Source: Candidatus Poribacteria bacterium (lineage in GTDB: Bacteria; Poribacteria; WGA-4E; JAJDTR01). From it: a stretch of DNA of 64,000 nt. The stretch spans positions 9,043 to 73,042 of the forward strand of contig JAJDTR010000088.1 of assembly GCA_022827055.1 (NCBI GenBank). Reading direction: 5' to 3'. Every line of letters starts with the position of its first letter. The stretch's first letter is position 1. The translations under genes and the position numbers were made by a program. Below, piece after piece: positions 10,744 through 61,907 of this stretch. The notes below the pieces were generated by a model, which was given only the letters and a program-made list of their open reading frames with translations, had not been told where the DNA came from and made no database searches.

Positions 10744-11287
10744 CTATCGCACACATTCCGTGTCTCGTGAGGTGGGATTTATGGGAGACCTGTCGCCGGG
10801 TTTTGTGTTGAATCCGTCATGTAAACCTGATAGAATTGAACTCAGAATAATGCGCTGAATTATACTCCGCTTGTAGGAATCCGTCAAGCCTAAAGAAACC
10901 GAAGAGTCAAGTCAATCGACTCTGATTCTTTGAGGGAGCAGTTGGACGTACACGACCCGTTCTGTGATTGTGAGGACCCTCTACGCCTGTCACATGCTTA
11001 CAATTCCGCGCATGTCAATTAGATAGTATTAGTTCTCTTGAAATGCGAAGTTACGCTCTTCTGGAGCGTTAGACGGCCATACTCCTTCTACATACATAGC
11101 ACTCCGCTGAAGCGCCATGCATGTCTATGTGGACAAATCACTTTTCCGCCTTAGATGACGGAGATCTATAGGCGACATCCGAAAACCTGCGCTATATATC
11201 AATGGATTTGAAAACGGTGGGCGATGCCCACTCTACAGCTTGGAAAAGCAGGCGTGAACTAGAAAAAGAGCAACCATTTTTCATCCA

Positions 11288-12583
11288 ATGAAAATCGCCT
11301 ACATCGCTGCGGGTGCCGCGGGCATGTATTGCGGCACCTGCATTCACGACAACACCCTTGCCGCCGCGCTCCTGAAGAAGGGGCACGATGTCGCACTCAT
11401 CCCAACCTACACCCCCATCCGCACGGACGAAACCGATGTCAGCATCCACCGCATCTTTTACGGCGGGATTAACGTCTATCTGGAGCAGAAATTGGCGTTG
11501 TTCCGTCATACACCGTGGATTTTCGACGAATTGTTCAACAGCCCCGCGCTCCTGAGTAAGTTATCTAGATTCGCCGGTTCAACAAACGCGAAAGATCTCG
11601 GCGCGCTCACGCTATCCGTGCTTCAAGGCGAAAACGGGCGCCAGAGGAAGGAACTGGAAAAGCTCATTAAATGGTTGAAAGATGCCTACCGCCCGAATCT
11701 GGTACAGCTCACCAACTCCATGTTCGTAGGGTTTGCCAAGGAGATGAAAAAGGCGTTGGGCGTTCCGATTCTCTGCGCGCTTCAGGGAGAGGACATCTTT
11801 CTCGAAGGTCTCGTAGAACCTTACAAGTCGCAAGCGCTGGAGGTTTTGCGCGCGCGGGTTTCGGATGTGGACGGTTTCATCGCGCCCTGCCGATACTATG
11901 CCGAGTTCATGGCGTCGTATCTCAAGATTCCCACGGACAAAGTCAACGTGGTGAAACTCGGTTTGAATTTGGAGGGACACGGAGGGGCAAGAAATACTGC
12001 TAGCCCGGATTCTCCCTTCGTGATTGGGTATCTGGCACGGATCTGTCCTGAGAAGGGGCTGCATCTGCTCGTTGATGCCTTTTACCGGTTGACGCAAAAG
12101 GTCCCATCTGATAAGATTCGGCTCAAAGTGGCGGGGTATCTCGGCAAGGGAGACACGCTCTACTTCGAGGAGATTGTGAATCAGATTGAAGCGTGGGGAT
12201 TGGGGAACTCATTTGAGTATTTAGGGGAGGTTGACCGCGAGCAGAAGGTGAATTTCCTCAAGGAACTCCACGTCCTATCCGTGCCAACTACCTACAAAGA
12301 ACCCAAGGGGCTGTTTGTCTTGGAAGCGCTCGCCAATGGCGTGCCGGTCGTCCTCCCAAGGCACGGGGGATTCCCGGAGTTGATCGATGCGACGGGCGGC
12401 GGCTTACTCGTAGACGCAGAGTCGCCGACCGCAACCGTGGAGGGCATACTTGAACTGATGAATGATCCGAAACGCCGAGAGGAACTGGGGCGGCGAGGAA
12501 AGGAAGCGGTGCACCGACGGTTTAGCGACGATATCATGGCGGAGGAGACATTGGCGGTATATCGAAAATACCTTTCGACTTAG
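11288..12583 (+). CDS. Glycosyltransferase family 1 (GT4-like)
   Basis: 431 aa. C-terminal EPKGLFVLEALANGVPVV...GGFPEL motif of GT-B group-1 glycosyltransferases. Confidence 0.8.
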   Translation: MKIAYIAAGAAGMYCGTCIHDNTLAAALLKKGHDVALIPTYTPIRTDETDVSIHRIFYGGINVYLEQKLALFRHTPWIFDELFNSPALLSKLSRFAGSTNAKDLGALTLSVLQGENGRQRKELEKLIKWLKDAYRPNLVQLTNSMFVGFAKEMKKALGVPILCALQGEDIFLEGLVEPYKSQALEVLRARVSDVDGFIAPCRYYAEFMASYLKIPTDKVNVVKLGLNLEGHGGARNTASPDSPFVIGYLARICPEKGLHLLVDAFYRLTQKVPSDKIRLKVAGYLGKGDTLYFEEIVNQIEAWGLGNSFEYLGEVDREQKVNFLKELHVLSVPTTYKEPKGLFVLEALANGVPVVLPRHGGFPELIDATGGGLLVDAESPTATVEGILELMNDPKRREELGRRGKEAVHRRFSDDIMAEETLAVYRKYLST

Positions 12584-12593
12584 GGAGAAAAAT

Positions 12594-13070
12594 ATGCGTA
12601 TGACTTGGCTAATCTTTGTCTTCATAACGGTTGCGGCATGGGGTTCTTACGGCGTTTTACTTCATACCGGGCATTTGTCAATGGCGGACGCCGCGCATGG
12701 GCGCTACAAAGCGTTCTTTTTCGTGGGCACGGCCTATCTGCTGATAGCAGTTATCGGATCCGCAGCCATGCTGGTAGCAAGCGGTGCAACGTGGAGTTTT
12801 CCGGCGAAGGGCATAGCTTGGTCAACTATCGCCGGGACAGCAGGCGCCATCGGAGCCTTCGGTGTCGTGTTGGCATTTGGAGCGGGAGGAAGGCCCGCCG
12901 TGGTGATGTCGATAGTCTTTGCCGGCGCTCCGATCGTTAATGCGGTGATTGCGACGGCGGTGCACCCACCAGCGGGGGGTTGGAGTAGTTTGAACTGGCA
13001 ATTCATCCTTGGAATCCTGCTTGCCGCGACCGGCGGTTTCCTCGTGACGCTTTTTCGACCGGGGACGTAG
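12594..13070 (+). CDS. Small polytopic membrane protein (hypothetical)
   Basis: About 158 aa with 4-5 hydrophobic helices. GGGAGAAAAAT ribosome-binding site before the ATG at 12594. The upstream part of the six-frame ORF overlaps the glycosyltransferase gene. Confidence 0.5.
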   Translation: MRMTWLIFVFITVAAWGSYGVLLHTGHLSMADAAHGRYKAFFFVGTAYLLIAVIGSAAMLVASGATWSFPAKGIAWSTIAGTAGAIGAFGVVLAFGAGGRPAVVMSIVFAGAPIVNAVIATAVHPPAGGWSSLNWQFILGILLAATGGFLVTLFRPGT

Positions 13071-13087
13071 TTTTCTGCCGGATAGGA

Positions 13088-13525
13088 TTGCATGTCATGC
13101 CCTATGAATTTCGGACAAAACGGCAGATAGAATTCTCCGACACCGACATGGCCGGCATTGCGCATTTTTCTCGATTCTTTGTTTTCATGGAATCCGCAGA
13201 GCACGAGTTTCTACGTTCATTGGGAACTAGTGTCGCGACAGAATGGGAAGGAAACAAGATTGGTTGGCCAAGGCTCTCGGCATCGTGCGAGTACTTAAAT
13301 CCCGTCAAATTCGAGGACACCTTGGATATTCATCTGACAGTTTCGAGAAAAGGGCGAAAATCCATGACCTACGAATTTGTGTTTACCAAAGACGATCTCG
13401 AAATAGCGCGCGGTCAGATGAGAACGGTGTATTGTACCTGTAACCCGGGCGAAAAGATGAAAGCCATCCCAATCCCCGATTACATCGCGAACCAGATTGA
13501 AGAAGTAGGGGCAAATGATCGCTAG
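13088..13525 (+). CDS. Acyl-CoA thioesterase, 4HBT/YbgC-FadM family
   Basis: 145 aa. FSDTDMAGIAH...F hot-dog fold signature. Confidence 0.75.
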   Translation: MHVMPYEFRTKRQIEFSDTDMAGIAHFSRFFVFMESAEHEFLRSLGTSVATEWEGNKIGWPRLSASCEYLNPVKFEDTLDIHLTVSRKGRKSMTYEFVFTKDDLEIARGQMRTVYCTCNPGEKMKAIPIPDYIANQIEEVGANDR

Positions 13526-13617
13526 TCCCAACGATTCACGAATGATGAATTACCATTGCGATTCATTTAAGTGTCCAACAGCGTAAGCCCTAATTATACT
13601 ATTTCTCCGCGTGAAAG

Positions 13618-14319
13618 ATGGCAACGTCACATCATACGTCCCTCAAAGTGTCGGAGGTGCACAAGAGTTTTGGTAGCGAGACGCGCTCCGTTGAAGTTCT
13701 CCGCGGCGTCTCGTTCGAGATGACTCAAGGACAGCAACTTGCCCTAACCGGCCCCTCCGGCTCAGGAAAAAGCACACTGTTACACCTGATTGGTACGCTG
13801 GACACACCTTCCGTCGGCACAATTGAAATTAACGGCGAAAACCCGTCTGAGTTCCCGGAGCCACGGCTGGCGAGGTTTCGCAATCAGGTGATTGGGTTCG
13901 TTTTTCAGGACCATCACCTTCTGCCCCAATATTCGGTTCTGGAGAATGTCCTGATACCCACCCTGGCATTTAAGCGCCGCGACGCGGAGATCGAGGTGCG
14001 AGCTAGAGCCTTACTCGAAGGCGTCGGTCTCTCTCACCGCTTGAGCCATCGTCCGGCTGCGCTTTCCGGGGGCGAATGCCAGCGTGTCGCTGTGGCTCGC
14101 GCACTTATTAATCGGCCGAGCCTTCTCCTGTGCGACGAACCAACGGGAAATCTCGACCGTTCCACGGCAGATACAGTTGCCTCCCTCCTCTTCGAACTTC
14201 ACCAAGCCGAGCAAAATATCTTGATTGTGGTGACGCACAACCTAGAACTTGCCGCGCGGTTTGAACGCCGATTCGAGTTGGTAAACGGAAGAGTTGAAGG
14301 TCAGGCGGGGCAGGTTTGA
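13618..14319 (+). CDS. ABC transporter ATP-binding protein (LolD/MacB-type)
   Basis: Walker [10 protein letters not shown], signature [10 protein letters not shown], Walker [12 protein letters not shown]. Confidence 0.9.
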
Positions 14320-14364
14320 GATGAATACATTAGTCCTGTAAGATTATCAGACCATTGTAAAACC

Positions 14365-15984
14365 GTGCTATCCATGCATACACCAAACCGTACCTTTGAG
14401 ACTCGCGGTCCTGTTTCGCCGGACCGCAACTACGTTGTCCCGCGCACGGAGGAGATTGTCGATCTGGTTGGACGGATGAAGGAGGGGCGGTATATCTCCA
14501 TCTTCGCTCCGCGCCAGACGGGCAAGACCACCTTTTTCCGATGGGCTCTGGATGCGCTCACGGCTGGAGATAGCGCCTATTTCCCGATCCAACTCGACTT
14601 TGAGACCTATAGGAACGTGAGCGTCGAAAGTTTTTATGCCAACTTACGGCGCGACATACGTGATGAGGTCGTCCGCGAACCTCGGCGGTTTGGGATTAAT
14701 CTCACGCCAAACTTCCAACAGTTCCTTGACAACTATCCGTTGAGAGATCACAATTCCTTCCAAATCTTTCTGCGCGAACTCGCATCACACCTCGGAAATC
14801 GAAGGGTCGCAATTATCATTGATGAATTTGACGGTATCCCGCGAGCGGCATTGAGCGATTTTCTTTACACACTTCGCAGAATCTATCTCTCAAGGGATGC
14901 GAATCGATGTCCTTACAGCGTAGGAATTGTCGGGGTCAAAAACATTCGCCAACTGAATTATGATTGGAGCATCTCTCCGTTCAATATCCAAGACGAGTTT
15001 GCGCTCTCCAATTTTACGTTGGATCAGGTGGATACCCTTTTGGGACAGTACACCGAAGAGGTAGGGCAAGCTTTTGATCGAAAGGTGGTTGAGAGTATCC
15101 ACACGCAGACAGCGGGCCAACCCTTTTTGGTCAACCGAATGGCGCAAATTCTAGCGGAAGAGATGAGCATTCCTATGGCAGAAACGATTCGCTGCGAGCA
15201 CTTTGAGATAGCCTACAAAAAGATTCTGAATGAATCGAATGTGCACATCTCACACTTGACAACCAATATACGCCGGGAAGCGCGATTTGAACATGTTCTG
15301 ATGCGTGTCATTCTCAATGAACAGAAACTTCCATTCAGCATAGATGACCCGACCATGAGTGAGTTGTTCACCTACGGTGCCATGCTCCCGGACGCAGACG
15401 GAAATTGCAAGATTCAAAACCCGATATACCAATATCGGATAGTTCGAGCATTTCAACCGCTGTTCAACGGTTTGGAAATGCAGTATCTCCCAGAGGATAC
15501 CGATGCGGGTTTTCTTGATTATATGACCTCCCAAGGTAAGGTAGATATGCGGCGTCTGTTGTCAAATTTCCGCGATTTCATCGCTCGCGCGGGATATCGC
15601 ATTCTCGAGGTTCCGGACACTCCCAAGGAATTCGTCGGTCAATATCTGTTGTTTGCTTATCTCGATTCCTTCGTACAACAGATTCGAGGGTTTATGTATC
15701 TTGAGGTTAGGACCGGGCGAGGACAGATGGATCTGATTATCCTGCACGCCGGCGAGAAATACATCGTCGAAACGAAGATTTGGGGCGGCGAAAGCCTCTA
15801 TCAAGCGGGCAAGGCGCAACTAGTGGCATATCTCAAATCCGAAGGTGTGCACGAAGGATACTACATTGTGTTTGATCATCGCCGAAACCCTCAGGCGCGG
15901 GTTGATGAGGAATCGATTGATGGCAACATAATTGTCAGCTATTGCATTCCCGCGTTGCAAAACCGACCGTCTGACGAAATCTGA
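14365..15984 (+). CDS. AAA-ATPase-like protein with C-terminal PD-(D/E)XK nuclease domain (PF09820 + PDDEXK_9-like architecture)
   Basis: 539 aa. Walker A APRQTGKTT. Walker B IIIDEFD. C-terminal D...E.K core (MDLIILHAGEKYIVETKIW). Confidence 0.65.
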   Translation: MLSMHTPNRTFETRGPVSPDRNYVVPRTEEIVDLVGRMKEGRYISIFAPRQTGKTTFFRWALDALTAGDSAYFPIQLDFETYRNVSVESFYANLRRDIRDEVVREPRRFGINLTPNFQQFLDNYPLRDHNSFQIFLRELASHLGNRRVAIIIDEFDGIPRAALSDFLYTLRRIYLSRDANRCPYSVGIVGVKNIRQLNYDWSISPFNIQDEFALSNFTLDQVDTLLGQYTEEVGQAFDRKVVESIHTQTAGQPFLVNRMAQILAEEMSIPMAETIRCEHFEIAYKKILNESNVHISHLTTNIRREARFEHVLMRVILNEQKLPFSIDDPTMSELFTYGAMLPDADGNCKIQNPIYQYRIVRAFQPLFNGLEMQYLPEDTDAGFLDYMTSQGKVDMRRLLSNFRDFIARAGYRILEVPDTPKEFVGQYLLFAYLDSFVQQIRGFMYLEVRTGRGQMDLIILHAGEKYIVETKIWGGESLYQAGKAQLVAYLKSEGVHEGYYIVFDHRRNPQARVDEESIDGNIIVSYCIPALQNRPSDEI

Positions 15985-16009
15985 TACGCCATCCTCAGAA
16001 ATTCTTTTC

Positions 16010-19000
16010 ATGCGTCAAAGTCTGATCCATTTCTGGCAAATCCATCTCGCCGTGTTGCTCGGCGCCGCCGTGGCAACGGCAGTCCTCACCGGGGCGCTTC
16101 TGGTAGGAGATTCCGTTCGCGGCAGCTTACGAGATTTAACGCTGGATCGCCTCGGTCAAATTGACCATGTGGTGCTTTCGGAGCGTTTCTTTAGAGAAAC
16201 CCTCGCGGCAGATCTGGCGACCTCTCCGGAGACGGATGACGGATACGACCGTGTTGTTCCCGCAATGCTGCTGAGCGGTGCAGCAGTTAACGCGACTACC
16301 AAGACTAGGGCATCACGCGTCCAAATTCAAGGGATTGACGAGCGCTTTCTCGCTTTCTGGCCATCCGCTGAAACAGGCGAGTCGAGCGCGTTCCTGAAAA
16401 AGGGTCCGGGTCAACTCTTCCCATCGGTCGTTATTAACCAATCTCTCCAGAAGGAACTCAACGTCAAGGTTGGGGGCACGCTTCTCATCTCTTTTCAGAA
16501 GCAAAACGAGATTCATCCCGAATTTCTGCTTGGACGCCGCGACACCTTGGATGTCCTGCAAACCCTCCGACTATCCGTATCGGATATTGTCCCAGATTCT
16601 GGCGTTGGACGATTCGGTTTGCGCCCTCGTCAAAGTCTTCCTTTCAACGCCTATGTTTCTCTCCCCGTTTTGCAAAAAGCCTTAGATCTGGAGGCGAAAG
16701 TCAACGCAATTCTAATTTCGTCACCTGCAATTCCCGCAGTTGACGCAACGGAGCGTTTGAGGAAAGAACTCCCGCAGGTTTTAACGTTGGATGACTTCGG
16801 ATTAACGCTCCGGCGAGCTGACGACCATTTCTCCCTTGAAACCTCTCAGTTTATTCTCAAACCGAATATCATTAAACTGGCGAAGTCTCTCGCTGCCGAG
16901 AACGAGATTCCCGTGAATACCGTCATGACCTACTTGGCGAATGAGATTTCGGCGAACGGGAAGTCGGTGCCCTACTCCACTATTACGGCGCTCGACGTGA
17001 GTGAGGGGATGCGGGAGAGTACAGGCGAGCAACCGGACAATCAGTTCCTGTTTCGTGCCGCGCTACTCGGCGATCATGAAATCCTGCTCAACGAATGGGT
17101 GGCGGGCGAATTGAAGGCACAGCCCGGGGATAGGATTGACATAAGTTATTACGTCATTGGGCACCAAGAACAGTATTTGACAAGGTACGCCCAATTTCGA
17201 CTAGCGGGTGTTGTCCCTCTGAGCGGGTTAGCCGCAGACAGGGAGTTGACGCCCAAATTTCCGGGAGTTCACGACGCCGATGACATGTCCGAATGGGACG
17301 CACCATTTCCGGTCGATTTCAGCCGGATTCGCCTAGAAGATGAAGCCTACTGGGATGAATTCGGCGCGACTCCCAAGGCCTTTGTTTCTGCCGCGACGGG
17401 CGATCGATTGTGGAGCAGCCGGTTTGGCAGCCTGACGGCAATTCGCTTCGGAGCGACACAGGGCAAAGGTCTTGATACGACCCAAAAGATTTTCCTAGAA
17501 CAGTTGCTGAAAATGATTAACCCCGAGCAGATCGGGTTTGAATTCCAACCGGTGAAGGCGCAGGGCTTGGAAGCCTCCACAGGCGCCACCGACTTCAGCA
17601 TGTTGTTCCTCGGATTCAGTCTTTTTCTCATCGTATCTGCGTCACTTCTCGTAGGGTTACTCTTCCGACTTGGCGTCGAGGGACGAGCAGGCGAGATCGG
17701 GGTTCTATTGACTTCTGGCTATCCACTCTCCAAAGTGCGTTGGCATTTCATGAGGGAGGGAGGTATTATTGCCACAATTGGCGGTGCGATAGGCGTGGTT
17801 GGGGCAATCGGCTATGCTTGGTTGATGATGGCGGGTTTGCGGACGTGGTGGGTGGCGGCAGTGGGAACGCAGTTCCTGTCATTTCATGTTGGCCGTTTGA
17901 GCCTATTATTCGGCTACGTGATTTCCGTGATTGTCGTGCTGGCTTCAATCGGATGGACAGTCCGGCGGCTGGGTAAAGTTTCAATTCGCTCGTTAGTTTC
18001 CGGGGCAACTGAGCTTGAAGAGAGTGCACCGGGACGTGTGGTGCGTATCTTCGCTTTCGCAGCGATTGGGATTGCTCTGGTACTCTTTCTGTTTGCACTG
18101 AATACCGATGCATCCTCGGCACCCGTGCTCTTCTTCACTATTGGGGCGTTTCTACTGATTGCAGGATTCTCCTTTCTTAATTTATGGTTAAAATTGGATA
18201 GCCCGTCCGAAGCATCGAGTTCAAAGCGAGGCATAGCGCGGATAGGGGTCCGGAATTGCGGGCGTCGCCCCGGTCGGAGTATACTTTGCGCGGCATTGGT
18301 TGGTTGCGCCTGTTTCGTCATCGTTGCGGTCGGCGCAAATCGGCATGTTAATAGCGATCACGGCGCGTCTCTGGAGAGAACCTCCGGTACAGGCGGGTTT
18401 ACGCTGGTTGCGGAGGCGGACATCCCTTTACACCATGACCTGAACTCTGAAGCCGGTAGATTTGAATTGGGATTCTCGGACAGGGATGAGGCTGTGGTGG
18501 CTCAATCCCAAATTATCCCACTTCGCCTACTCCCTGGTGAGGACGCAAGTTGTCTGAACCTCTATCAACCCCAGAATCCTCGGATAATGGGTGTTCCCGA
18601 AAATCTCATTTCGCGAGGCGGTTTCCAATTCCAGTCAAGAGTGAACGGAGAGGGGTCGCCGTGGCAGCTTCTACACGAGGAACTCGGAGAAGGGGTAATT
18701 CCGGCTATCGGGGATTATAATTCGGTGATGTGGATTTTGCACCTTGGACTTGGCGAAGATCTCGTTATGCCGGACGAATTAGGCGAACCGTTAAAGCTCC
18801 GGCTCGTAGGCCTTTTGCAAGGTAGCATTTTCCAGAGCGAACTGTTAATCTCCGAAGATAATTTTACCAAATACTTTCCAAGTCAAAGCGGGTACAAGTA
18901 TTTCCTAATTCAAACGCCTCCCGACGAATCGGAAGAGGTGACGCAGGCGCTTGAAAGCGTGCTTCGCGATCACGGATTCGATGTGACCTCGACCGCCGAA

Positions 19001-19411
19001 AAATTAGCTAACTACCGAATCGTCGAAAACACCTACCTCTCCACGTTTCAGACGCTTGGCGGTTTCGGACTGCTGCTCGGGACACTAGGTCTTGGCTTGA
19101 TTCTTTTGAGGAACGCGATTGAGCGGCGCGGCGAATTGGCGACCCTACGGGCATTTGGTTTTCGCCGATTAACGCTTTCCGTGATGCTCTTGATAGAGAA
19201 CGCATTTCTTCTGTTGACCGGTATGGCAATCGGTACTATTTCCGCGTTGATTGCCGTTGGGCCGCACATACTTGCTCCCGGAAGTCATGTTCCGTGGACC
19301 TCCCTTGCGGCGACCTTGGGCGTCGTGTTTCTAATAGCCATGATAGCTAGCGCCGCCGCGGAGTTTTTTGTGCTGCGTGCTCCGCTACTTCCTGCGTTAA
19401 AAACCGAGTGA
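16010..19411 (+). CDS. ABC transporter permease, FtsX/MacB-like, with two large periplasmic domains
   Basis: About 1133 aa. Two FtsX 4-TM modules. Start MRQSLIHFWQI at 16010. The six-frame ORF extends to 15932 and overlaps the previous gene. Confidence 0.8.
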   Translation: MRQSLIHFWQIHLAVLLGAAVATAVLTGALLVGDSVRGSLRDLTLDRLGQIDHVVLSERFFRETLAADLATSPETDDGYDRVVPAMLLSGAAVNATTKTRASRVQIQGIDERFLAFWPSAETGESSAFLKKGPGQLFPSVVINQSLQKELNVKVGGTLLISFQKQNEIHPEFLLGRRDTLDVLQTLRLSVSDIVPDSGVGRFGLRPRQSLPFNAYVSLPVLQKALDLEAKVNAILISSPAIPAVDATERLRKELPQVLTLDDFGLTLRRADDHFSLETSQFILKPNIIKLAKSLAAENEIPVNTVMTYLANEISANGKSVPYSTITALDVSEGMRESTGEQPDNQFLFRAALLGDHEILLNEWVAGELKAQPGDRIDISYYVIGHQEQYLTRYAQFRLAGVVPLSGLAADRELTPKFPGVHDADDMSEWDAPFPVDFSRIRLEDEAYWDEFGATPKAFVSAATGDRLWSSRFGSLTAIRFGATQGKGLDTTQKIFLEQLLKMINPEQIGFEFQPVKAQGLEASTGATDFSMLFLGFSLFLIVSASLLVGLLFRLGVEGRAGEIGVLLTSGYPLSKVRWHFMREGGIIATIGGAIGVVGAIGYAWLMMAGLRTWWVAAVGTQFLSFHVGRLSLLFGYVISVIVVLASIGWTVRRLGKVSIRSLVSGATELEESAPGRVVRIFAFAAIGIALVLFLFALNTDASSAPVLFFTIGAFLLIAGFSFLNLWLKLDSPSEASSSKRGIARIGVRNCGRRPGRSILCAALVGCACFVIVAVGANRHVNSDHGASLERTSGTGGFTLVAEADIPLHHDLNSEAGRFELGFSDRDEAVVAQSQIIPLRLLPGEDASCLNLYQPQNPRIMGVPENLISRGGFQFQSRVNGEGSPWQLLHEELGEGVIPAIGDYNSVMWILHLGLGEDLVMPDELGEPLKLRLVGLLQGSIFQSELLISEDNFTKYFPSQSGYKYFLIQTPPDESEEVTQALESVLRDHGFDVTSTAEKLANYRIVENTYLSTFQTLGGFGLLLGTLGLGLILLRNAIERRGELATLRAFGFRRLTLSVMLLIENAFLLLTGMAIGTISALIAVGPHILAPGSHVPWTSLAATLGVVFLIAMIASAAAEFFVLRAPLLPALKTE

Positions 19412-19426
19412 ACAAAGGATGGAAGG

Positions 19427-20137
19427 ATGGGAAGTAGCGATTCAGCCCGCAAACCGCTTATACGTATCAATGGTTTGAGAAAAACATACAGGGAAGGCGA
19501 TCAACATCATATCGTGCTGGACGGAATCAGCGAGGAGTTTTATGAGGGCGAATTTGTCTGCCTGCACGGGAAATCCGGCAGCGGCAAGAGTACGCTGCTC
19601 AACCTCATTGCCGGCATTGACGCGCCTAGCAACGGCGACATCCTTATTCAAACATCCGAGGGAGGAATCACTCTCAATCGCCTAACGGAGCGCGACCGTA
19701 CCCTATTCCGACGAGATCATATCGGTTTCGTATTCCAATTCTTTAATCTCATACCGACGCTAACTGTACTTGAAAACGTCACGCTGCCCTTAAACCTGAT
19801 GGGAGAGAGGGATGCTTACGAACCTGCGGCTTCGCTGCTGAATGCCGTTGGTCTCGGTACGCGTATGAACGCCTATCCCGACAGGTTAAGCGGCGGTGAA
19901 CAGCAGCGTGTGGCGATCGCTCGCGCCCTAGTGCATAATCCGAGGTTTCTACTCGCCGATGAACCGACCGGAAACTTGGACGCCGAAACAGGTGAGTCCG
20001 TTCTCTCGCTGCTGTTGCATTTGAGTCGATCTGCCGGGAAAACCTTAGTGATGGCAACGCATGCAACCGAAATTGCGGAGCGGGCAGACCGCGTGTTTCA
20101 CATCGACAGCGGAAAACTGATCCTGCATAAGGGATAA
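19427..20137 (+). CDS. ABC transporter ATP-binding protein
   Basis: [24 protein letters not shown] and [11 protein letters not shown] motifs. Confidence 0.9.
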
Positions 20138-20147
20138 TATCGGAGAC

Positions 20148-22715
20148 ATGGGAAATCTGAGAACTTTGCTTCGGTTGGCTTGGCGAGACGCATGGCGCCG
20201 TCCGCTTCAAAGCCTGTTTTTCGTCATCGGTGTGTCCATCGGCGTAGCGATGATTATTGCCATAGACCTTGCCAATTCGTCTGCAAATCGGGCGTTTACC
20301 ATCAGTACAGACGCCGTTGTCGGCAAAGCGACACATCAGATTGTCGGTGGGCCGAACGGAGTGGACGAGAGCGTCTACGTCCAGATCCGGCGTGAACTCG
20401 GTTACCGCGATAGTGCCCCTATCGTTGAGGGGTACGTCAGGGTGAAGACGCTTAACGGGCAACCGATGCGTTTGCTCGGCGTCGATAGTTTCGCTGAACG
20501 TCCGTTTCGCGAGGAACTTGGTACGGCAAAGATTGCGGGGTTAAATCAAAGGTCGTTCAGCGCGTTCATGGCAGAACCGAACACTGTCCTAATAGGAGCA
20601 AATGTCAGTGACGAATACCGGCTCCCCATTGGCGAGAGTTTGGAAATACAGGTAGGGAGTTACCACCACAAACTGCGAATTGTCGATGTGATTGCGTCCG
20701 AAAACAGGCGGATTCGACGTTCGCTGAAAGATTTGCTGGTGACCGATATTGCCACCGCGCAAGAGATATTTGCGAAAATTGGAAAACTGGACCGAATCGA
20801 CCTTATCCTACCAGACGCTCCGTTGCATACGACAGCACTCGAGCACATCGAATCAATGCTTCCACCCGGTGCCCGCATCGAAAGCTCGGATGCCCGCCAC
20901 GGCGCGGTCATCGAGATGACGAAAGCCTTCCGACTAAATTTGACTGCGCTGAGTTTGTTAGCCTTAGTGGTGGGTATGTTTTTGATTTACAACACGGTAT
21001 CGTTTAGCGTGATTCAGCGGCGCGCGGTGATTGGGCGGCTGCGCGCCATCGGGATGGCACGGGGCGAAATCTTCGCCATGATTCTTGCTCAAGCGACTGT
21101 GCTCGGCATTGCTGGCGCGTTGCTCGGCATTGGGTTGGGAATCTTCCTTAGCCGCAGTGCGATTGGAATGGTAACCACCAGCATCAATGACCTATTTTTT
21201 GTCAGCAACGTGCGGGAAATTGATGTGTCAGCACTGACGCTTCTGAAAGGTGGGTTGCTCGGTATCGCGGCTGCGATGACTGGAGCACTAATACCGGCGT
21301 ATGAAGCGACGCGAGTGTCCCCGGTCGGTACGCTTCAGAGGAGCACTATCGAAACTCGGACACGCGGATCACTTCATCGAATCAGCATTGCCGGCGTTGC
21401 CGCGCTGCTGCTTGGCGCGGGTACCCTTCTCCCCGATTGGCATCTCGGGCTCACATTTCTGGGTGTGCTTGCCGTATTGGTCGGGATGGCGCTCCTGACA
21501 CCGTCGCTCATGCGTGGATTTGCGGCGTTAGCGGCGACTCATTGGCTGCGGCGAAAGATTCCTATTCTGGGAAACATGGCGGTTCGGGACATTGACCGCA
21601 CATTAAGCCGAACCTCTACCGCTGTTGCCGCGCTCATGATCGCCGTAAGTGTGATTGTCGGGGTAAGCGTTATGGTTGGGAGTTTTCGCATGACTGTTGA
21701 ACGGTGGCTGACAGATCTATTGGGGGCAGACATCTTCGTCTCGCCGCCGGCAGTCGCCAACAGTCAGATGACGGAGAAACTCGATCCGGACGCCGTCAAG
21801 TTGTTTGAGACATTTCCGGGCATCGCCCGAGTTGCCACGGCTAGGAGCGTTGAAATTGATTCCAAGGACATAGGCCGTATTACCTTGAGCGCCATCACTC
21901 GGGACATTGCAGGGGAAAAGCGTCACTACAAATCCGCCGTCGGAAATCACGCCGAAACGTGGGATGCGTTCCGATCAGGCGGACTCATTGTCAACGAGCC
22001 GTTAGCAAACCGGTACAAACGCTCACTCGGCGATACGATAACGCTTCTCACGGATAGAGGAGAAGTCCCCTTCACAATTGTTGGTGTGGTTTACGATTTC
22101 GATGTGCGGCCGGGAGCGATGATGTATGATGCTGTCTACCGCAATTATTGGGACGATCCGCACCTTTCGTCTGCCGCACTTTTTGTCCAACCCGGCGTCG
22201 ATGTTGACGAGAAGATCGGATCGTTAAAATCCGTTTTCGGAGGCAACCTGGAGCTCGTCATCCGCTCAAATCGAGCGCTGAGGGCCGATGCACTTGCCGT
22301 GTTTGACCGCACGTTCAGCATCTTCATTGCGCTGCAGATGCTCGCGGCAGTGGTTGCATTTATCGGGGTACTTTCAGCTTTGATGAGTTTGCAACTGGAA
22401 CGGACGCGCGAGATTGGCACTTTGCGGTCTCTCGGCATCACACGCGGTCAGCTAGCAAGACTGACGCTCCTCGAAACGGGATTGATGGGCGTGATCGCCG
22501 GATTAATCGCAATGCCCACCGGTCTGGTGCTTGCTGCGATTCTGATATACATCATCAACCTCCGCTCTTTCGGATGGACACTGCAGATGCAGTTACAACC
22601 TTCACAGTTCACCCTCGCGTTCGTGGTCGCCCTCGTTTCCGCTTTATTGGCGGGCATCTATCCCGCATGGCGTATGGGACAGATGCAACCCGCCGAGGCG
22701 TTGAGAACAGAGTAA
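20148..22715 (+). CDS. ABC transporter permease, FtsX-like (two-module, 855 aa)
   Basis: N-terminal TM helix. Periplasmic domain. Two FtsX TM bundles. C-terminal YPAWRMGQMQPAEALR. Confidence 0.8.
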   Translation: MGNLRTLLRLAWRDAWRRPLQSLFFVIGVSIGVAMIIAIDLANSSANRAFTISTDAVVGKATHQIVGGPNGVDESVYVQIRRELGYRDSAPIVEGYVRVKTLNGQPMRLLGVDSFAERPFREELGTAKIAGLNQRSFSAFMAEPNTVLIGANVSDEYRLPIGESLEIQVGSYHHKLRIVDVIASENRRIRRSLKDLLVTDIATAQEIFAKIGKLDRIDLILPDAPLHTTALEHIESMLPPGARIESSDARHGAVIEMTKAFRLNLTALSLLALVVGMFLIYNTVSFSVIQRRAVIGRLRAIGMARGEIFAMILAQATVLGIAGALLGIGLGIFLSRSAIGMVTTSINDLFFVSNVREIDVSALTLLKGGLLGIAAAMTGALIPAYEATRVSPVGTLQRSTIETRTRGSLHRISIAGVAALLLGAGTLLPDWHLGLTFLGVLAVLVGMALLTPSLMRGFAALAATHWLRRKIPILGNMAVRDIDRTLSRTSTAVAALMIAVSVIVGVSVMVGSFRMTVERWLTDLLGADIFVSPPAVANSQMTEKLDPDAVKLFETFPGIARVATARSVEIDSKDIGRITLSAITRDIAGEKRHYKSAVGNHAETWDAFRSGGLIVNEPLANRYKRSLGDTITLLTDRGEVPFTIVGVVYDFDVRPGAMMYDAVYRNYWDDPHLSSAALFVQPGVDVDEKIGSLKSVFGGNLELVIRSNRALRADALAVFDRTFSIFIALQMLAAVVAFIGVLSALMSLQLERTREIGTLRSLGITRGQLARLTLLETGLMGVIAGLIAMPTGLVLAAILIYIINLRSFGWTLQMQLQPSQFTLAFVVALVSALLAGIYPAWRMGQMQPAEALRTE

Positions 22716-22830
22716 TGGCGGATGGGAAGGATGGAAGACGGGAAAACGAGAGAGCGAGAAAACGGGAGGGAAGTGGTGAGGGGAGGAAGGATGGAAGATG
22801 GGAAGCGTGGAAGAGAGGGAGTGGTTAATG
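22716..22830. repeat. Purine-rich imperfect direct repeats (GGATGGAAGAYGGGAA units)
   Basis: Two to three copies of a roughly 30-bp G/A-rich unit immediately after the permease stop. Gives a low-complexity GKDGRRE-type translation. Confidence 0.5.
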
Positions 22831-23132
22831 ACCAGAAGATCTCTATTAGGATTAGCTATCGCGCGGGATTTACTATTGGTCTTGCACTCTGGAGGAGCGA
22901 TATGTCTGTAGGAAAACGATAGCACCTTCTTCCGCTCCAGCGGAAGCGGCATATCTAAAGGTGTATTGAGTGATTCACGTAGCCCCGAAGAGCGGCAACG
23001 GGCAACTGGACAGTCCTGTATCATTTCTATAGAAATAAAGTCGCGACCTGGAGATCGCTCCTACAGTGCGTATGTCGTATTTGTGCAAATATGAATGTAA
23101 CTGACCATTATAACGAAACTCACTCGTATACG

Positions 23133-24269
23133 ATGAACAAACCACTGACACTTTTCACTACCATAATTCTCGCGTTAGGTCATTTTGCCCACGTTAGCGG
23201 GGACACAAGCCAACGGAACATCACAGAAATACTAAGCGAGGAAAGCGAGGATAAATTTGCTCGTGCCGTAGAGCCCTTGGATTTTGTGTTTCCCACGGAC
23301 CACGGACCGCATCCCGACTACAAAACCGAGTGGTGGTACTATACCGGCAACCTGAAGGCGGAGGGCGGGAGAGAGTTCGGCTATCAACTCACCTTTTTCC
23401 GAAGGGCGTTGGCGGTGGAGATACCCGTGCGAAAATCGCGTTTAGCGACAAATCAGATTTACATGGCGCATTTCGCCCTAACCGACGTTAAGGCAAAGAC
23501 GCACACCAGTTTTGAACGATATAGCCGCGGCGCGGGTGGATTGGCTGGCGCACAGGGGGAACCTACCTACGAGGTTTGGCTTGAGGATTGGTCGGTATCT
23601 CAGGGTGGTACGGGTGTTTTTCGTTTGCGAGCGGTTGACGACCAGATTGAACCGCGTATCTCAATCGATTTGAAACTGCGAGAAACACGTCTACCCCTGC
23701 TGCACGGACTCCGGGGGTTGAGCCAAAAGGGTCCCGAGCATGGGAACGCGAATCACTACTACAGTCTCGTCGGACTGGACACAGAGGGCACGATTATCAG
23801 TCGTAGAGAAACGTATAAAGTTTCGGGTAAGAGTTGGATGGATCACGAATTCGGGACAAGTGCCTTCAGCAAAGGCGTGGTTGGCTGGGATTGGTTCGGA
23901 CTGCAACTCGACGATGGCACCGCCCTGATGTTTGGTCGATTGCGTAAAAGCGAAGGAGGCGAAATCGGCATCTTTGAGGGAACGGTTTCGTACGCCGACG
24001 GGCGACGGATTCCAATCCAACCGGGGGAATTCACGGTGACGGCAACGGGGAGTTGGAGAAGTCCAGAGACCGAAATCACCTATCCTTCCGGTTGGCGGGT
24101 GGAATTTCCGTCTCTTGGTATCGAATTGCGCATTGAGCCGCTAATTTCAAATCAGGAGCTATACAGCGGTTTTACGTATTGGGAGGGCGCAGTTTCGGCG
24201 GAGGGAACAATCCGGGAGGCGCCGTCAACAGGTCGCGGCTATGTCGAGTTAACGGGCTACACCAAATGA
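23133..24269 (+). CDS. AttH/CrtC-like lipocalin-domain protein (hydroxyneurosporene-synthase-like fold)
   Basis: Signal peptide from MNKPLTLF. HPDYKTEWWYYTGNL...GYQLTFFR motif typical of AttH/CrtC family proteins. These are often encoded next to AttEFG-type ABC transporters. Confidence 0.6.
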   Translation: MNKPLTLFTTIILALGHFAHVSGDTSQRNITEILSEESEDKFARAVEPLDFVFPTDHGPHPDYKTEWWYYTGNLKAEGGREFGYQLTFFRRALAVEIPVRKSRLATNQIYMAHFALTDVKAKTHTSFERYSRGAGGLAGAQGEPTYEVWLEDWSVSQGGTGVFRLRAVDDQIEPRISIDLKLRETRLPLLHGLRGLSQKGPEHGNANHYYSLVGLDTEGTIISRRETYKVSGKSWMDHEFGTSAFSKGVVGWDWFGLQLDDGTALMFGRLRKSEGGEIGIFEGTVSYADGRRIPIQPGEFTVTATGSWRSPETEITYPSGWRVEFPSLGIELRIEPLISNQELYSGFTYWEGAVSAEGTIREAPSTGRGYVELTGYTK

Positions 24270-24308
24270 TGGTGAAATTGGGGAGTAAAAGTAACGTCTA
24301 CTGAAAAA

Positions 24309-24329
24309 GGAGGGGAATTTCTCCCCTCC
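24309..24329 (-). terminator. Rho-independent terminator hairpin (8-bp GC-rich stem, T5 run on minus strand)
   Basis: GGAGGGGA-ATTTC-TCCCCTCC. It is followed by TTTTT on the minus-strand transcript and sits just downstream of the minus-strand lipoprotein gene. An A-run precedes it on the plus strand, so it may act weakly in both directions. Confidence 0.6.
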
Positions 24330-24421
24330 TTCAACTGACTCAGGAGTGTGTTGACACGACAAGAGCACATCATGATACGGCTAGATGACATACTCGCGTG
24401 GAAAACTCGGTTCCTATGGGT

Positions 24422-25321
24422 TTAGTCTCCCCATGCCGGTCCTCGATCAGGCACCCACAGCATCATTCCCGCTCTAAGGCGCCGCGGGTTAAAGTCGGAG
24501 TCGTCTTGGTTTGCCTCGACCAATCTTTTCCAAAGGTTGGCGTCGTCGTAAACCTCGGGGCGTCCGGCAATGATCGGGAGTGTTTCGCCTTGTCGAACTC
24601 TATATTTGCGAACCTTTTCCGGATACGAGACTGAAAAGCTGGAACTGTGACTGGCTGTTTGGGCGTTGCCCTTTGCGTCTTTGAAATCGGACACGGTGAC
24701 CATATATTTGCGGCCCGCCCGCATCGGCTCATCGGAAGTGAACGTGACCATGTTTCCAGTGCCGCTCACGCTGCCGGCAACATCACCCGATTCCTTACTA
24801 ATCGATTCGGGAGTTGACTCCACCGTTACGGACACCATTCCGCTCATGCTATCCACATCTTCGCTAAACGTAAATGATATCGTGTTTCCCACGTTAAGCG
24901 AATCTTCATAATCGGAGATGAGCGTGCCGTCTGGCGGATCTACCGAGGTCACGGTCGGCGGTGTTGCATCGGTATAGGTGAACTTCTGCGCGAGCGTCGC
25001 CGGTTTCTCAACTTTTTTCTTGTTGGTCACGACGACTGCCACCGACTCGCCTGCGGTTCCGGCGGGAGTCACGGCGGTAATCTCGGTCTTGCTTGGAACG
25101 GTTACACTTTGGGCGCTATTGCCGCCGAAGGTAACGGTGACGCCGTTTTTCATGTCGAACTTCTCGCCACTAATTCGCACGGTCGTCCCGCCTGTTTCGG
25201 GGCCTTCAGTGGGACTCATGCCCGATGGCAGCGGTTCGGGGTTACATCCTCCGCACCCGGACATCCAGACAAGCGCAAAAGCCAATGCGATAGTCGTAGT
25301 AATATTTCTGAGTTGAATCAT
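24422..25321 (-). CDS. Secreted lipoprotein with Ig-like (SbsA/Big-like) domains and C-terminal LysM-like motif
   Basis: Lipobox LVWMSGCGGC after signal peptide starting MIQLRN (25321). T/S-rich beta-sandwich repeats. C-terminal YRVRQGETL...LWVP. Confidence 0.5.
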   Translation of the reverse strand: MIQLRNITTTIALAFALVWMSGCGGCNPEPLPSGMSPTEGPETGGTTVRISGEKFDMKNGVTVTFGGNSAQSVTVPSKTEITAVTPAGTAGESVAVVVTNKKKVEKPATLAQKFTYTDATPPTVTSVDPPDGTLISDYEDSLNVGNTISFTFSEDVDSMSGMVSVTVESTPESISKESGDVAGSVSGTGNMVTFTSDEPMRAGRKYMVTVSDFKDAKGNAQTASHSSSFSVSYPEKVRKYRVRQGETLPIIAGRPEVYDDANLWKRLVEANQDDSDFNPRRLRAGMMLWVPDRGPAWGD

Positions 25322-25560: not shown

Positions 25561-25662
25561 TCTCTGTGGGAACTCCATCGCACAGGATTCACTATCGCAG
25601 GATTAGCTATGAACTCTATGGGAATTCTATCGCGGTCATTATTCATTCGCTTGATCCTACAG
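25561..25662. repeat. Dispersed repeat family A (CTATCGC / TCGCTTGATC element), copy 1
   Basis: Shares TCTATGGGARYYCTATCGCGG...TCGCTTGATCC with the five other copies. Confidence 0.6.
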
Positions 25663-25877: not shown

Positions 25878-26005
25878 GATCTCTATCGCGTTAAGATCTC
25901 TATCGCGCTCGCTATCCACTCGCTTGATCCTATCCGGTCACTTGATCACTCGCTATTCGCTCGCTTGATCTATTCGCTCGTTCGATCCTTATTCAGTCGC
26001 TTGAT
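25878..26005. repeat. Dispersed repeat family A, copy 2 (internally reiterated TCGCTTGATC x4)
   Basis: ctctatcgcg x2 then cactcgcttgatcc / tcgctcgcttgatc / gtcgcttgat sub-repeats. Confidence 0.6.
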
Positions 26006-32464: not shown

Positions 32465-32737
32465 AGAGCCTGTTTGAAAAATCCGTATTCAAGCTATTTT
32501 TGGTCATTTGAAGACACGTCTTTCGTGATTTCATGCCATGTACCTGTCGCCCCGCCGGGGCTTAGGTGTGCGGGGTTTCGGCATTTCTACACACCTTCAA
32601 GATCTCTATGGGAGTTCTATCGCGGTCACTAATCGTTCCCTTGATCACTCGCTATCCGCTCGTTTAATCCCCTCCGGGGCTATTAGAGGCTGGTGCGCGG
32701 TGCGCACCCTACAAACTGCACTTTTCAAACAGGCTCT
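32465..32737. mobile_element. MITE-like element, copy 1, with 16-bp terminal inverted repeats AGAGCCTGTTTGAAAA
   Basis: Terminal inverted repeats at 32465-32480 and 32722-32737. Internal palindromes GCCCCG-C-CGGGGC and GGTGCGC-GG-TGCGCACC. About 85% identical to copy 2 (61606-61807), except for a ~70-bp nested family-A insertion. Confidence 0.75.
32601..32670. repeat. Dispersed repeat family A, copy 3, nested inside MITE copy 1
   Basis: gatctctatgggagttctatcgcggtcactaatcgttcccttgatcactcgctatccgctcgtttaatcc. Absent from the otherwise collinear MITE copy 2. Closest to the copy at 58807. Confidence 0.7.
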
Positions 32738-42691: not shown

Positions 42692-42850
42692 GTTGCCACA
42701 AGTTTCGGAGATTCGTATCAGTCGGGCGCCCACGCGTCCCCCGCCTTTTTTGTGATCACTAATCGAAAACGTTCTCTATGTCTGGACCGGTTCTATCAGG
42801 GATTTCGTGGTTTCCCTGTCCCGATGGTGCAAACCGTTTCTTGCTAGCGC

Positions 42851-43012
42851 GCCATTATCCCTGTCGGAATAATTCTTTCAGCAAGTAACACTCATCTTTG
42901 GATCTATGACAGGCTTTGAGAAGGTGTTCTTTCGTAAAATGCTTTTCACTCCAGCGGAGTGCTATGTCAATAGAATCGTGATGCGTCTAATCTCCGTGCT
43001 CCAGCGGAGATC
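42851..43012 (-). repeat. Extended family-B composite repeat (left flank of sialidase gene)
   Basis: gccattatccctgtcggaataattctttcagcaagtaac... then a reverse-oriented double hairpin (cactccagcggagtg ... tgtcaatagaat ... ctccagcggaga). Confidence 0.65.
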
Positions 43013-43308
43013 AAGGGAATGGATAATGACCGCGATAGAGATCCTCAATGTGGAGTGTTACTTGAGAGAGTAAATCCAATAATAATTTATACACTGCGGT
43101 AGGTTCCAAGCGGGGGAATATACCGCTACGGGACGAATGACGATCGTGAAGTGGCGTCACACAATCAGCTAGATCAAGTTGCCGCCCATTCCGGTAACTG
43201 TGGAATGTCATTACTGCGCAATGGGATTGATACTCTGTTGGAGGACGCTTTTCCGCAGATGCTATCTGCCGGTAATCCCCAACCCAAGCTGCTTGAAAAA
43301 TGGAATAG

Positions 43309-44570: not shown

Positions 44571-44705
44571 TGCCATTATTCCTGTCGGAATAATTCTTTC
44601 AACAAGTAATACTTTCTAGTCAGAGTCCCATTCCTCGATCCAGCGGATCGAAATGTCAATAGAATGCGACATGTCAAGAGTCCCGCGCTCCCGAGGAGCG
44701 CCATG
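44571..44705 (-). repeat. Extended family-B composite repeat (right flank of sialidase gene, direct repeat of 42851-43012)
   Basis: gccattattcctgtcggaataattctttcaacaagtaat... then cgatccagcggatcg ... tgtcaatagaat ... gcgctcccgaggagcgccatg. Confidence 0.65.
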
Positions 44706-52504: not shown

Positions 52505-52563
52505 GGGATTTCTATCGCACTCGCTAATCGCTCGCTTGATTTATTCACTCAGTTGATCGATTC
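52505..52563. repeat. Dispersed repeat family A, copy 4
   Basis: gggatttctatcgcactcgctaatcgctcgcttgatttattcactcagttgatcgattcgg. Confidence 0.55.
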
Positions 52564-61415: not shown

Positions 61416-61605
61416 GTGGTCAGTGACTAGTGAAATTCCTAACCCGTTCTATGGTGTAGTGGAGTAAGTATCTTGTGTCAGTTTCGTAAGCATCTAATGC
61501 ATATGGAGCCGACGCAGGAAACATGCTTTTCGCCGTGTAGGTCGGGCTTCTAGCCCGACGCTAGGAGACATTCCGCTTAGCCAAACCTAATCCGTGATAT
61601 CCTTT

Positions 61606-61807: not shown

Positions 61808-61907
61808 TAATCTTTTTAATCTACGATTCGCCCAGCTACAAAATTGCGCTTTCCTTATGCCATATTCTTTTTGTGAAAAAACCACTAATTCCCGAGGATT
61901 GTCAACC

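Follow-up and report, generated by a model that had tools for sequence, protein, structure and literature searches.

An old insertion of a predicted ATPase-nuclease gene into a conserved ABC export operon of Candidatus Poribacteria

In the genome of a Candidatus Poribacteria bacterium (GCA_022827055.1, contig JAJDTR010000088.1), the ATP-binding protein and the permease of a predicted ABC exporter are separated by a gene for a putative ATPase-nuclease, and we were interested whether this gene is a component of the exporter or a foreign insertion. The bacterium is sponge-associated. All coordinates refer to the window, the stretch of 64,000 nt that was analysed, and all features given lie on its + strand. 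The operon in question, here module 1, begins with a GT4 glycosyltransferase gene (11288..12583; Pfam Glycos_transf_1, E 3e-31, and synteny), followed by a small conserved protein of 158 aa (12594..13070), a 4HBT/YbgC-type acyl-CoA thioesterase (13088..13525; Pfam 4HBT E 3e-11, TIGR00051 E 2e-15) that is syntenic in most orthologous loci, and ATPase1, an ABC ATP-binding protein of the LolD/YbbA/MacB type (13618..14319; ABC_tran E 5e-35). The inserted gene (14374..15984, 536 aa) precedes Perm1, a duplicated FtsX-type permease of 1133 aa (16010..19411) with two FtsX stretches in Pfam. Module 2 consists of the attE-like ABC ATP-binding protein ATPase2 (19427..20137; ABC_tran E 2e-32), the attF/G-like permease Perm2 of 855 aa (20148..22715; MacB_PCD and FtsX, twice each) and an AttH/CrtC-like double-lipocalin protein (23133..24269; CrtC E 4e-56, Lipocalin_9 E 4e-41) with an N-terminal signal-like segment. 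The six ORFs from ATPase1 to the AttH-like protein, described before in a sequence-only reading, were all recovered in place on the + strand. An Rfam scan of 10700-24600 found nothing.

Three start sites deserved attention. For the ATPase-nuclease gene the closest homologues point to ATG 14374, rather than 14365, as the most likely start. A supposed overlap of its 3' end with the permease turned out to be an artefact of the maximal ORF, which opens at TTG 15932; every Perm1 orthologue aligns from ATG 16010, leaving a gap of 25 nt after the stop at 15984. For the AttH-like protein the previously proposed start at 23133 is probably correct, as opposed to 23091 of the maximal ORF, because residue 15 is where the alignment with most orthologues begins. 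Similarly, the maximal ORF of the 158-aa protein opens at 12462, ATG 12594 is preceded by GGGAG, and the related locus L001 has a called gene of 158 aa at the equivalent place; this protein is kept across phyla within the operon and had no Pfam or NCBIfam match.

Both modules show the features of MacB/FtsX (type VII) exporters, namely a separate LolD/MacB-like ATPase and a permease that combines FtsX four-helix bundles and a large periplasmic domain. ATPase1 scored high on LolD, YbbA and DevA models, always under the cut-offs, and the two ATPases reached 204-257 bits on the TIGR LolD and YbbA models, again under the equivalog cut-offs. The proposal of two AttEFGH-like modules held for module 2 only, including its linkage of transporter and AttH. 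The pAt plasmid of Agrobacterium fabrum carries an ABC ATPase, an 802-aa FtsX permease and a lipocalin-like protein in the identical order, with 41% identity for ATPase2 (blastp E 9e-51), 25.7% over 847 aa, the full length, for Perm2 (E 5e-55) and 36.6% for AttH (blastp E 4e-57). Module 1, in contrast, has a permease of 1133 aa without any match to the Agrobacterium permease at E <= 1e-3, lacks AttH and is linked to GT4 and 4HBT genes; no AttH was found in distant module-1 loci either. A duplication of the ATPase-permease pair, as had been assumed, was rejected, as the match of Perm1 to Perm2 is confined to the final FtsX repeat (22% identity, E 0.005) and the ATPases are 42% identical. Module 1 is a separate conserved operon in the order GT4, 158-aa protein, thioesterase, ATPase1 and Perm1, found in Poribacteria, Planctomycetota and Acidobacteriota as a so far unstudied export unit, and module 2 adjoins it only in close relatives.

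Comparison of orthologous loci supported the suspicion that the ATPase-nuclease gene is foreign to the module-1 operon. In 24 distant loci from Poribacteria, KSB1, Planctomycetota, Acidobacteriota and Lentisphaeria, ATPase1 directly adjoins Perm1, the spacer ranging from -106 to +174 nt (with an overlap of the two genes in four loci), and no remnant of the gene is present. The gene occupies the identical site in the window and in L001-L007, L010-L012 and L014, including the distant relative L004 (Perm1 61% identical), whose copy branches in the family tree as the sister of the window clade. The dN/dS of 0.07-0.13 is similar to that of the neighbours, and a GC3 of 55% against 56-60% for the neighbours, together with codon usage inside their range, gave no compositional sign of a recent transfer; the deviation looked for in 14365-15984 was not seen. 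The insertion is ancient, neighbour-like in composition and under purifying selection. One may ask whether the gene has instead become, or always was, a component with a functional or regulatory role in the module-1 exporter, since it lies inside the operon with short spacers of 54 nt upstream and 25 nt downstream, neither holding a terminator-like site, and has been kept under purifying selection at one position in at least 11 lineages. We regard this as highly improbable, given its absence from the 24 distant operons, its loss from two loci with an otherwise intact operon, the absence of any recurrent ABC or FtsX neighbour for family members elsewhere, and a cytoplasmic DNA-nuclease fold, for which an envelope exporter has no evident use. 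A weak promoter-like match was detected in the upstream spacer (14316-14344), and such matches are no commoner here than in shuffled sequence.

The loss concerns the loci L008 and L009, which are nested inside the gene-carrying clade and have retained the whole module-1 operon. Junction alignments revealed that the last 17 codons of the ATPase-nuclease gene remain in both, joined at a direct repeat of 5 bp, ATTGT. Its left copy lies at 14354..14358 in the window, and the right copy together with the last 17 codons (IVSYCIPALQNRPSDEI and the stop) at 15931..15984. The remnant was also detected in the two spacers by tblastn (E 5e-07 for L008, E 0.02 for L009). The 'empty' alleles are deletion derivatives, formed by secondary loss through a 5-bp microhomology deletion. 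That L008 and L009 are virgin sites, with the ORF tail stemming from host DNA, was rejected, as the C-terminal tail IVSYCIPVVQERPS is kept throughout the family. Likewise, the ATTGT pair was rejected as a mark of insertion; it marks the deletion in the relatives.

These results bear on the possibility of an active selfish element, for example a homing-endonuclease-like or 'naked ORF' nuclease that is copied or ligated into its own break, would have homed into the ATPase1/Perm1 junction and could still spread. Such an element would account for a solo ORF with almost no non-coding flanking DNA, for a multi-copy family reaching across phyla at 60-77% identity, for the presence/absence polymorphism among close relatives and for a solitary copy wedged into a sugar-utilisation cluster in Haliscomenobacter. 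In L014 and L011 the gene also has a lower dS than its flanks, and the gene tree, though largely in line with synteny, differs from the Perm1 tree, both a hint at local recombination or segment exchange. However, the 'empty' sites are deletions that keep the 3' end of the gene, the position of the L004 copy fits a single old insertion, the composition is neighbour-like, and the long intact maintenance is unlike the invade-decay-loss cycle of homing genes. The ends of the gene show none of the terminal inverted repeats, target-site duplications or conserved flanks of a transposon or IS element: the end repeats, an 11-nt match (10/11) and the 5-nt ATTGT, are at chance level, and 28 family copies share no DNA motif within 100 nt on either side. 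We consider an active selfish element unlikely. Also unlikely, in our view, is a variant in which the tight cross-phylum subfamily represents an autonomous 'naked-ORF' mobile gene of a novel kind, whose AAA+/STAND-powered PD-(D/E)XK nuclease would break DNA to further its own spread and which would be captured at the break. Such a gene would have neither terminal repeats nor a recombinase or intron, and operon junctions like the ATPase1/Perm1 spacer would be its landing sites.

The ORF at 14365-15984 matched Pfam AAA_35 (E 5e-12) and AAA_22, with weak C-terminal matches to PDDEXK_3 and NERD. For AAA_35 (PF14516) the score was 45.7 bits at a cut-off of 27, covering residues 34-335 and thus the ATPase and helical region, and close homologues, 86-96% identical to the window protein, carry precomputed matches to PF14516 and to PF28130 (DUF8371). 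An alignment of 74 family members bore out the expected Walker motifs and C-terminal nuclease core. Within Walker A (APRQTGKTT, residues 45-53, 14506..14532) R47-T53 are invariant and A45 and P46 nearly so, and within Walker B (IIIDEFDG, residues 147-154, 14812..14835) D150-G154 are invariant and I147-I149 nearly so. With GK[ST] in Walker A, hhhhDE in Walker B and a Rossmann-like core ahead of helical and winged-helix domains, the protein has the makeup of a P-loop AAA+/STAND-ORC-like ATPase. Its C-terminal domain (residues 372-536, 15487..15984) shows the alpha-beta-beta-beta-alpha-beta core of the PD-(D/E)XK superfamily, with D at the start of beta2 and (D/E)xK in beta3; the putative catalytic residues D453, E466 and K468 (nt 15730-15777; D453...E466-x-K468) form an intact triad and are invariant or nearly so. 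The models PF09820 and PF08011, suggested before, gave no match to the window protein at E <= 0.01 and weak matches in 25/74 and 35/74 relatives, respectively, and fitted less well than AAA_35 (74/74), ATPase_2 (71/74) and NERD (55/74); PDDEXK_3 was found in 44/74. A repeat sensor domain (TPR, WD40 or LRR) was found in the 536-aa protein neither by Pfam nor by the structure model, PADLOC-DB 2.0 returned no family at E <= 0.01, and a sequence search of the PDB gave no solved structure matching the protein.

The AAA_35/DUF8371 family comprises >3,000 distinct sequences, with tandem paralogues common, copy number variable and distant homologues on many cyanobacterial plasmids. The window protein belongs to a tight subfamily, ~60-77% identical across Poribacteria, Chloroflexota and Beggiatoa-like Gammaproteobacteria, in which only one full-length representative with >50% identity was left at the 50% clustering level. 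No partner gene is conserved among members: when 811 flanking ORFs were clustered, the sizeable clusters consisted only of same-family paralogues and generic signalling proteins. Among the 129 nearest flanking ORFs of members elsewhere, no Pfam family occurred more than three times, the 25 most frequent families included neither ABC nor FtsX families, and replication or partition genes did not recur. Neighbours included type I restriction-modification genes, DNA methyltransferases, a TnpB-like (Cas12f1-like_TNB) gene, PemK and PIN toxins, an IS110 transposase and an integrase, a defence-type signal that is modest in the immediate neighbourhood (few of the 129 ORFs). No homologues were found in 50,697 phage records, and a literature search on AAA_35, PF14516 and DUF8371 gave nothing relevant. 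With its solo genes, many paralogues, cross-phylum spread and neighbours that often belong to restriction-modification, toxin-antitoxin or transposase types, the family resembles a component of the flexible genome or of the defence complement. The conservation of the tight subfamily is atypical of fast-evolving defence genes and could reflect a conserved, housekeeping-like target. Strong conservation would also be explained by a role in chromosome or plasmid maintenance, with an ORC/Cdc6-like DNA-binding ATPase and a nuclease serving replication, repair or partition rather than conflict. We judge this unlikely for a gene that is dispensable (lost in L008 and L009, absent from most Poribacteria relatives of the operon), varies in copy number, forms tandem paralogues and has no recurring replication or partition genes among its neighbours.

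From the synteny, the inheritance pattern, the domain architecture and the family context, the gene is probably a self-contained passenger, an old insertion that was vertically inherited and is not a transporter subunit, and we propose that it encodes an ATP-gated nuclease acting in conflict or defence. It was inserted in an ancestor of this Poribacteria clade into the short and probably translationally coupled ATPase1/Perm1 junction of the conserved GT4/thioesterase/ABC export operon, and has since passed down by vertical descent while purifying selection preserved it intact. Its expression would most likely occur by read-through from the host operon, as co-transcription is suggested by the spacing and the absence of terminator-like sites. 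The ATPase module may control the nuclease: by binding or hydrolysing nucleotide and by oligomerising, it would gate the binding and cleavage of DNA, along the lines of conflict nucleases of the McrBC, OLD or Avs type. The choice between a selfish insertion and a co-opted component, as posed by the sequence-only reading, was too simple: the insertion stands, it is old and under purifying selection, and a link to ABC genes elsewhere was not found. The locus provides a natural case of a foreign gene long kept in an operon junction that normally measures a few dozen nt or overlaps, and of its later removal in two lineages through a 5-bp microhomology deletion. In addition, it draws attention to AAA_35/DUF8371 as an abundant, uncharacterised ATPase-nuclease family with a subclade conserved across phyla; should the family turn out to act as a one-gene defence system or as a self-mobile nuclease, it would widen the range of NTPase-gated nucleases known so far.

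Among known systems, the window gene is closest to the catalogued 'AAA-like domain-containing proteins' of AAA_35 (PF14516)/DUF8371 (PF28130), as AAA_35 matches the window protein and all 74 aligned relatives; it differs in belonging to the tight, unusually conserved subclade. To the archaeal 'Arch_ATPase' proteins (PF01637; PDB 2qen, PABY2304, and 2fna, SSO1545) the identity is only 16-18%, and unlike the archaeal PD-(D/E)XK fusions with DUF234 (PF03008) the nuclease domain resembles NERD, PDDEXK_3 and PDDEXK_9. Analogous fusions with DUF234 and DUF1703 are covered by a survey of the PD-(D/E)XK superfamily (PMC3424549). The Bacteroidota proteins with PF09820 and PDDEXK_9/DUF1703 (PF08011) share the two-domain logic, the multi-copy state and the lack of a conserved context; judged from the profile matches, the window protein belongs to another family within one broad architecture. 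In comparison with McrBC, Avs3/Avs4 and Can2/Cap4-type nucleases it is a single polypeptide of 536 aa without a TPR-like sensor, partner gene or PADLOC match. It thus departs from the tripartite architecture of Avs/NLR proteins, and its likeness to them is confined to the NTPase and nuclease folds.

The six open reading frames described in the sequence-only reading were recovered in place and all in the same orientation. Pfam assigned ABC_tran to the ORF at 13618-14319 (ATPase1), AAA_35 and AAA_22 with weak C-terminal PDDEXK_3 and NERD matches to 14365-15984 (the AAA gene), two FtsX stretches to the permease ORF at 15932/16010-19411 (Perm1), a second ABC_tran to 19427-20137 (ATPase2), MacB_PCD and FtsX, each twice, to 20148-22715 (Perm2), and CrtC and Lipocalin_9 to 23091-24269 (the AttH-like gene). 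Both ATPases were nearest to LolD, YbbA, DevA and MacB in NCBIfam, with scores below the equivalog cut-offs. As its closest homologues start likewise, the AAA gene most likely begins at ATG 14374, giving a protein of 536 aa. The AttH-like gene probably begins at 23133. The start of Perm1 was placed by alignment at ATG 16010, because 38/38 orthologues align from that point. The reported overlap of the AAA gene with the permease is therefore confined to the maximal ORF, and the assigned stop and start codons are separated by a 25-nt spacer.

The scan of species-representative genomes with Perm1 as query yielded 38 loci, the closest from Candidatus Poribacteria MAGs with 79-96% amino-acid identity across genes. 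The tblastn synteny table defined a core operon of GT4, small protein, 4HBT thioesterase, ATPase1 and Perm1, parts of which occur in varying combinations in Poribacteria, one KSB1 MAG, Planctomycetota and Acidobacteriota. In the window this operon spans 11288-19411 (GT4 glycosyltransferase, a 158-aa protein without Pfam match, 4HBT thioesterase, ABC ATPase and ~1130-aa double-FtsX permease), and it was also found, whole or in part, in the related loci L013, L019, L023, L030, L032, L034, L035 and L039. Its possible function is the export of glycolipids or other lipids, and it appears to be uncharacterised so far. In two close relatives, a gene with PDDEXK_2 and HTH_Rpn_C domains (L001:399-1199, L002:1734-2582) lies some 8 kb ahead of the operon and upstream of TAL_FSA and GH127 genes.

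ATPase2, Perm2 and the AttH-like gene follow this operon only in close Poribacteria relatives; by tblastn synteny they are absent 3' of Perm1 in locus L004 and in all distant loci. The AttH-like protein matched 141 plasmid records, mainly from Agrobacterium and Rhizobium, and on pAt of Agrobacterium fabrum the AttH match is a lipocalin-like protein, encoded third in a unit whose first two genes specify an ABC ATPase and an 802-aa FtsX permease. In blastp, this permease aligned over its full length with Perm2 (25.7% identity, E 5e-55) and AttH with the AttH-like protein (36.6% identity), whereas Perm1 gave no match to the Agrobacterium permease. Similarity between Perm1 and Perm2 is confined to the final FtsX repeat (22% identity, E 0.005), and ATPase1 and ATPase2 are 42% identical. 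From these comparisons we assign the second module (ATPase2, Perm2, AttH-like gene) as att-like and the first (ATPase1, Perm1) as a different FtsX-type system. The pair is therefore a juxtaposition, and the reading as two Att-like modules that arose by duplication is not supported. According to a bioRxiv preprint (10.1101/2025.10.20.683597), archaeal synthesis of hydroxy-GDGT involves an AttH-family protein that acts as a lipid hydratase, which suggests that the AttH-like protein (23133-24269) may modify a lipid handled by its module.

The AAA gene is foreign to the ABC operon, in agreement with the proposal that it was inserted into the first module. The spacing between ATPase1 and Perm1 ranges from -106 to +174 nt in 24 distant orthologous loci, with overlapping stop and start codons in four, and no remnant of the AAA gene was found at any of these junctions. 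Loci with the gene at this junction are, besides the window, L001-L007, L010-L012 and L014. Among these, L004 is a distant relative (Perm1 61% identical, dS saturated), and as its copy is sister to the window clade in the neighbour-joining family tree, the phylogeny points to one insertion predating the split of the L004 and window lineages. The insertion is ancient, inherited vertically and maintained by selection; pairwise dN/dS of the AAA gene is 0.07-0.13, similar to flanking genes. A check of base composition and codon usage against the neighbours, also proposed earlier, gave a GC content of 49% vs 53-56% in the flanking ABC genes, mostly due to codon position 2, a GC3 of 55% vs 56-60%, and a codon-usage distance inside the neighbours' range. 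Neither spacer around the gene contains a terminator-like site, Rfam gave no match, and a weak promoter-like match at 14316-14344 is of a kind no commoner here than in shuffled sequence; the gene would be expressed by read-through from the host operon.

Two Acidobacteriota MAGs (L038:2892-8001, L041:3078-8001) carry ~5 kb of unrelated genes at the same junction, namely an MFS-like membrane protein and three other ORFs, which is a separate, independent break. Dispersed repeats were seen in the ATPase1-AAA spacers of two relatives. That of L007 (6032-6345) has an extra insert of ~280 bp with an internal 75-nt direct repeat and CCCCAG(A/C)GGGG palindromes; partial copies were detected by blastn in the window (32550-32737, 61604-61809, 25616-25657, 25895-25930, 42998-43052 and 52506-52540) and in other Poribacteria loci. 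The insert resembles a dispersed family of MITE- or REP-like repeats. In L001 (9781-10000) the spacer is taken up by another short dispersed repeat, with CGCCCCTCTGGGGCT hairpins, which recurs in the window at 42839-42890 and 44572-44609.

The relatives L008 and L009 (Perm1 83% identical to that of the window) lack the AAA gene and have spacers of 113-114 nt. Junction alignments revealed that these spacers run straight from ...ACCATTGT into CAGCTATTG...TGA, which encodes IVSYCIPVVQNRPSDET*, the final 17 codons of the AAA gene (tblastn E 5e-07 for the L008 remnant; that of L009 is more decayed). An origin of this tail from host DNA was ruled out by the conservation of IVSYCIPVVQERPS in family members from other phyla. 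The tail thus belongs to the AAA gene, and the 'empty' junctions are therefore deletions. The gene has been lost at least once through microhomology deletion, which the alignments place as a 1577-bp segment between two ATTGT pentamers (window 14354-14358 and 15931-15935). In the Perm1 neighbour-joining tree (like the family tree, without support values), L008 and L009 are nested inside the gene-bearing clade and are not sisters. For L014 and L011, the AAA gene shows a lower dS than the sequences on either side of it. Both findings may reflect local homologous recombination within the population. The identical ATTGT junction in the two non-sister relatives (L008:7887-8001, L009:7886-8001) reflects either a deletion allele that spread through recombination or the same deletion arising twice. 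Self-mobility of the gene at present is possible but has no positive support. The 'empty' sites arose by deletion, element ends cannot be seen, and the synteny agrees with one old event. Terminal repeats of the window copy do not exceed chance, and among 28 close copies no motif is common to the flanking DNA, whether left or right of the gene.

At E <= 1e-5, at least 3,352 relatives of the AAA protein were found (8,000 candidates scored). The 120 matches listed are 59-96% identical to the query, and the organisms named among them are Poribacteria, Anaerolineae, Caldilineaceae, other Chloroflexota, Candidatus Parabeggiatoa and other Pseudomonadota. After 50% clustering, P0142 (59%) was the one full-length representative above 50% identity, followed by full-length relatives of <=41%, and the wider family comprised 3,457 representatives at E <= 1e-3. 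Conservation extends to both termini, with Walker A, Walker B and D453...E466-x-K468 invariant or nearly so. The AlphaFold model had a mean pLDDT of 80.6, and the C-terminal 165 residues modelled alone (pLDDT 86.6) matched PD-(D/E)XK nucleases only (BamHI 9.0, Can2 9.0, McrC 8.8; also Bax1, NucS, Cas4, Shedu and HamA). Over 74 aligned family members, Pfam detected AAA_35 in all 74, ATPase_2 in 71, NERD in 55, PDDEXK_3 in 44, PDDEXK_9 in 35 and PF09820 (AAA-ATPase_like) in 25. The architecture is a recurrent fusion of an ORC/STAND-like ATPase and a PD-(D/E)XK nuclease. Searches for a PADLOC model match, a homologue in phage genomes, a sequence match among solved structures and a paper on the AAA_35/DUF8371 family were all negative.

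A metagenome scan added 80 family loci, in which clustering of flanking ORFs returned only same-family paralogues, tandem or nearby in nine loci, and generic signalling proteins. Such tandem or nearby paralogues are frequent in the family, as in L058 (6001-8895; two copies with a common 29-nt leader and a hairpin between), L064 (two copies), L047, L067, L070, L073 and L098. Among the 129 nearest neighbours, Pfam identified 160 families, each in <=3 loci, the recurrent ones including ResIII, HSDR_N, N6_Mtase, Mrr_cat, PIN and AAA_35. Individual contexts contain DNA methyltransferases with a TnpB-like (Cas12f1-like_TNB) gene; PemK and PIN toxins with an IS110 transposase; a type I restriction-modification system (Marinitoga plasmid); a Dnd-associated methyltransferase, XisH/XisI and an integrase (Pseudanabaena plasmid); and, for a solitary Haliscomenobacter copy, a sugar-utilisation cluster. 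Distant homologues (26-32% identical) reside on plasmids, chiefly of filamentous cyanobacteria, and two Pseudanabaena strains have one copy on each of four plasmids: P. galeata NZ_CP112875/77/78/79 and Pseudanabaena sp. ABRG5-3 NZ_AP017561/62/64/65, all 26-28% identical, with the homologue on plasmid ABRG53b directly 5' of a tyrosine recombinase gene.

The AAA gene encodes a stand-alone ATPase-nuclease whose catalytic motifs are intact and which lacks a conserved partner; a role in transport is very unlikely. The protein would carry out ATP-gated DNA cleavage, and a role in genome conflict, either defence or addiction-like, may be proposed because of the neighbourhoods, the copy-number variation and the spread over several phyla. 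Sequence conservation within the subclade is unusually strong, which favours a conserved target, and a function in DNA maintenance may therefore also be considered beside genome conflict. The AAA gene is an addition to a catalogued, uncharacterised family in an ordinary but neatly documented setting, and its upside rests with the whole family more than with this locus. The same type of ATPase/PD-(D/E)XK fusion is known from DUF234 and DUF1703 proteins, which are multi-copy and occur in non-conserved contexts (PMC3424549).
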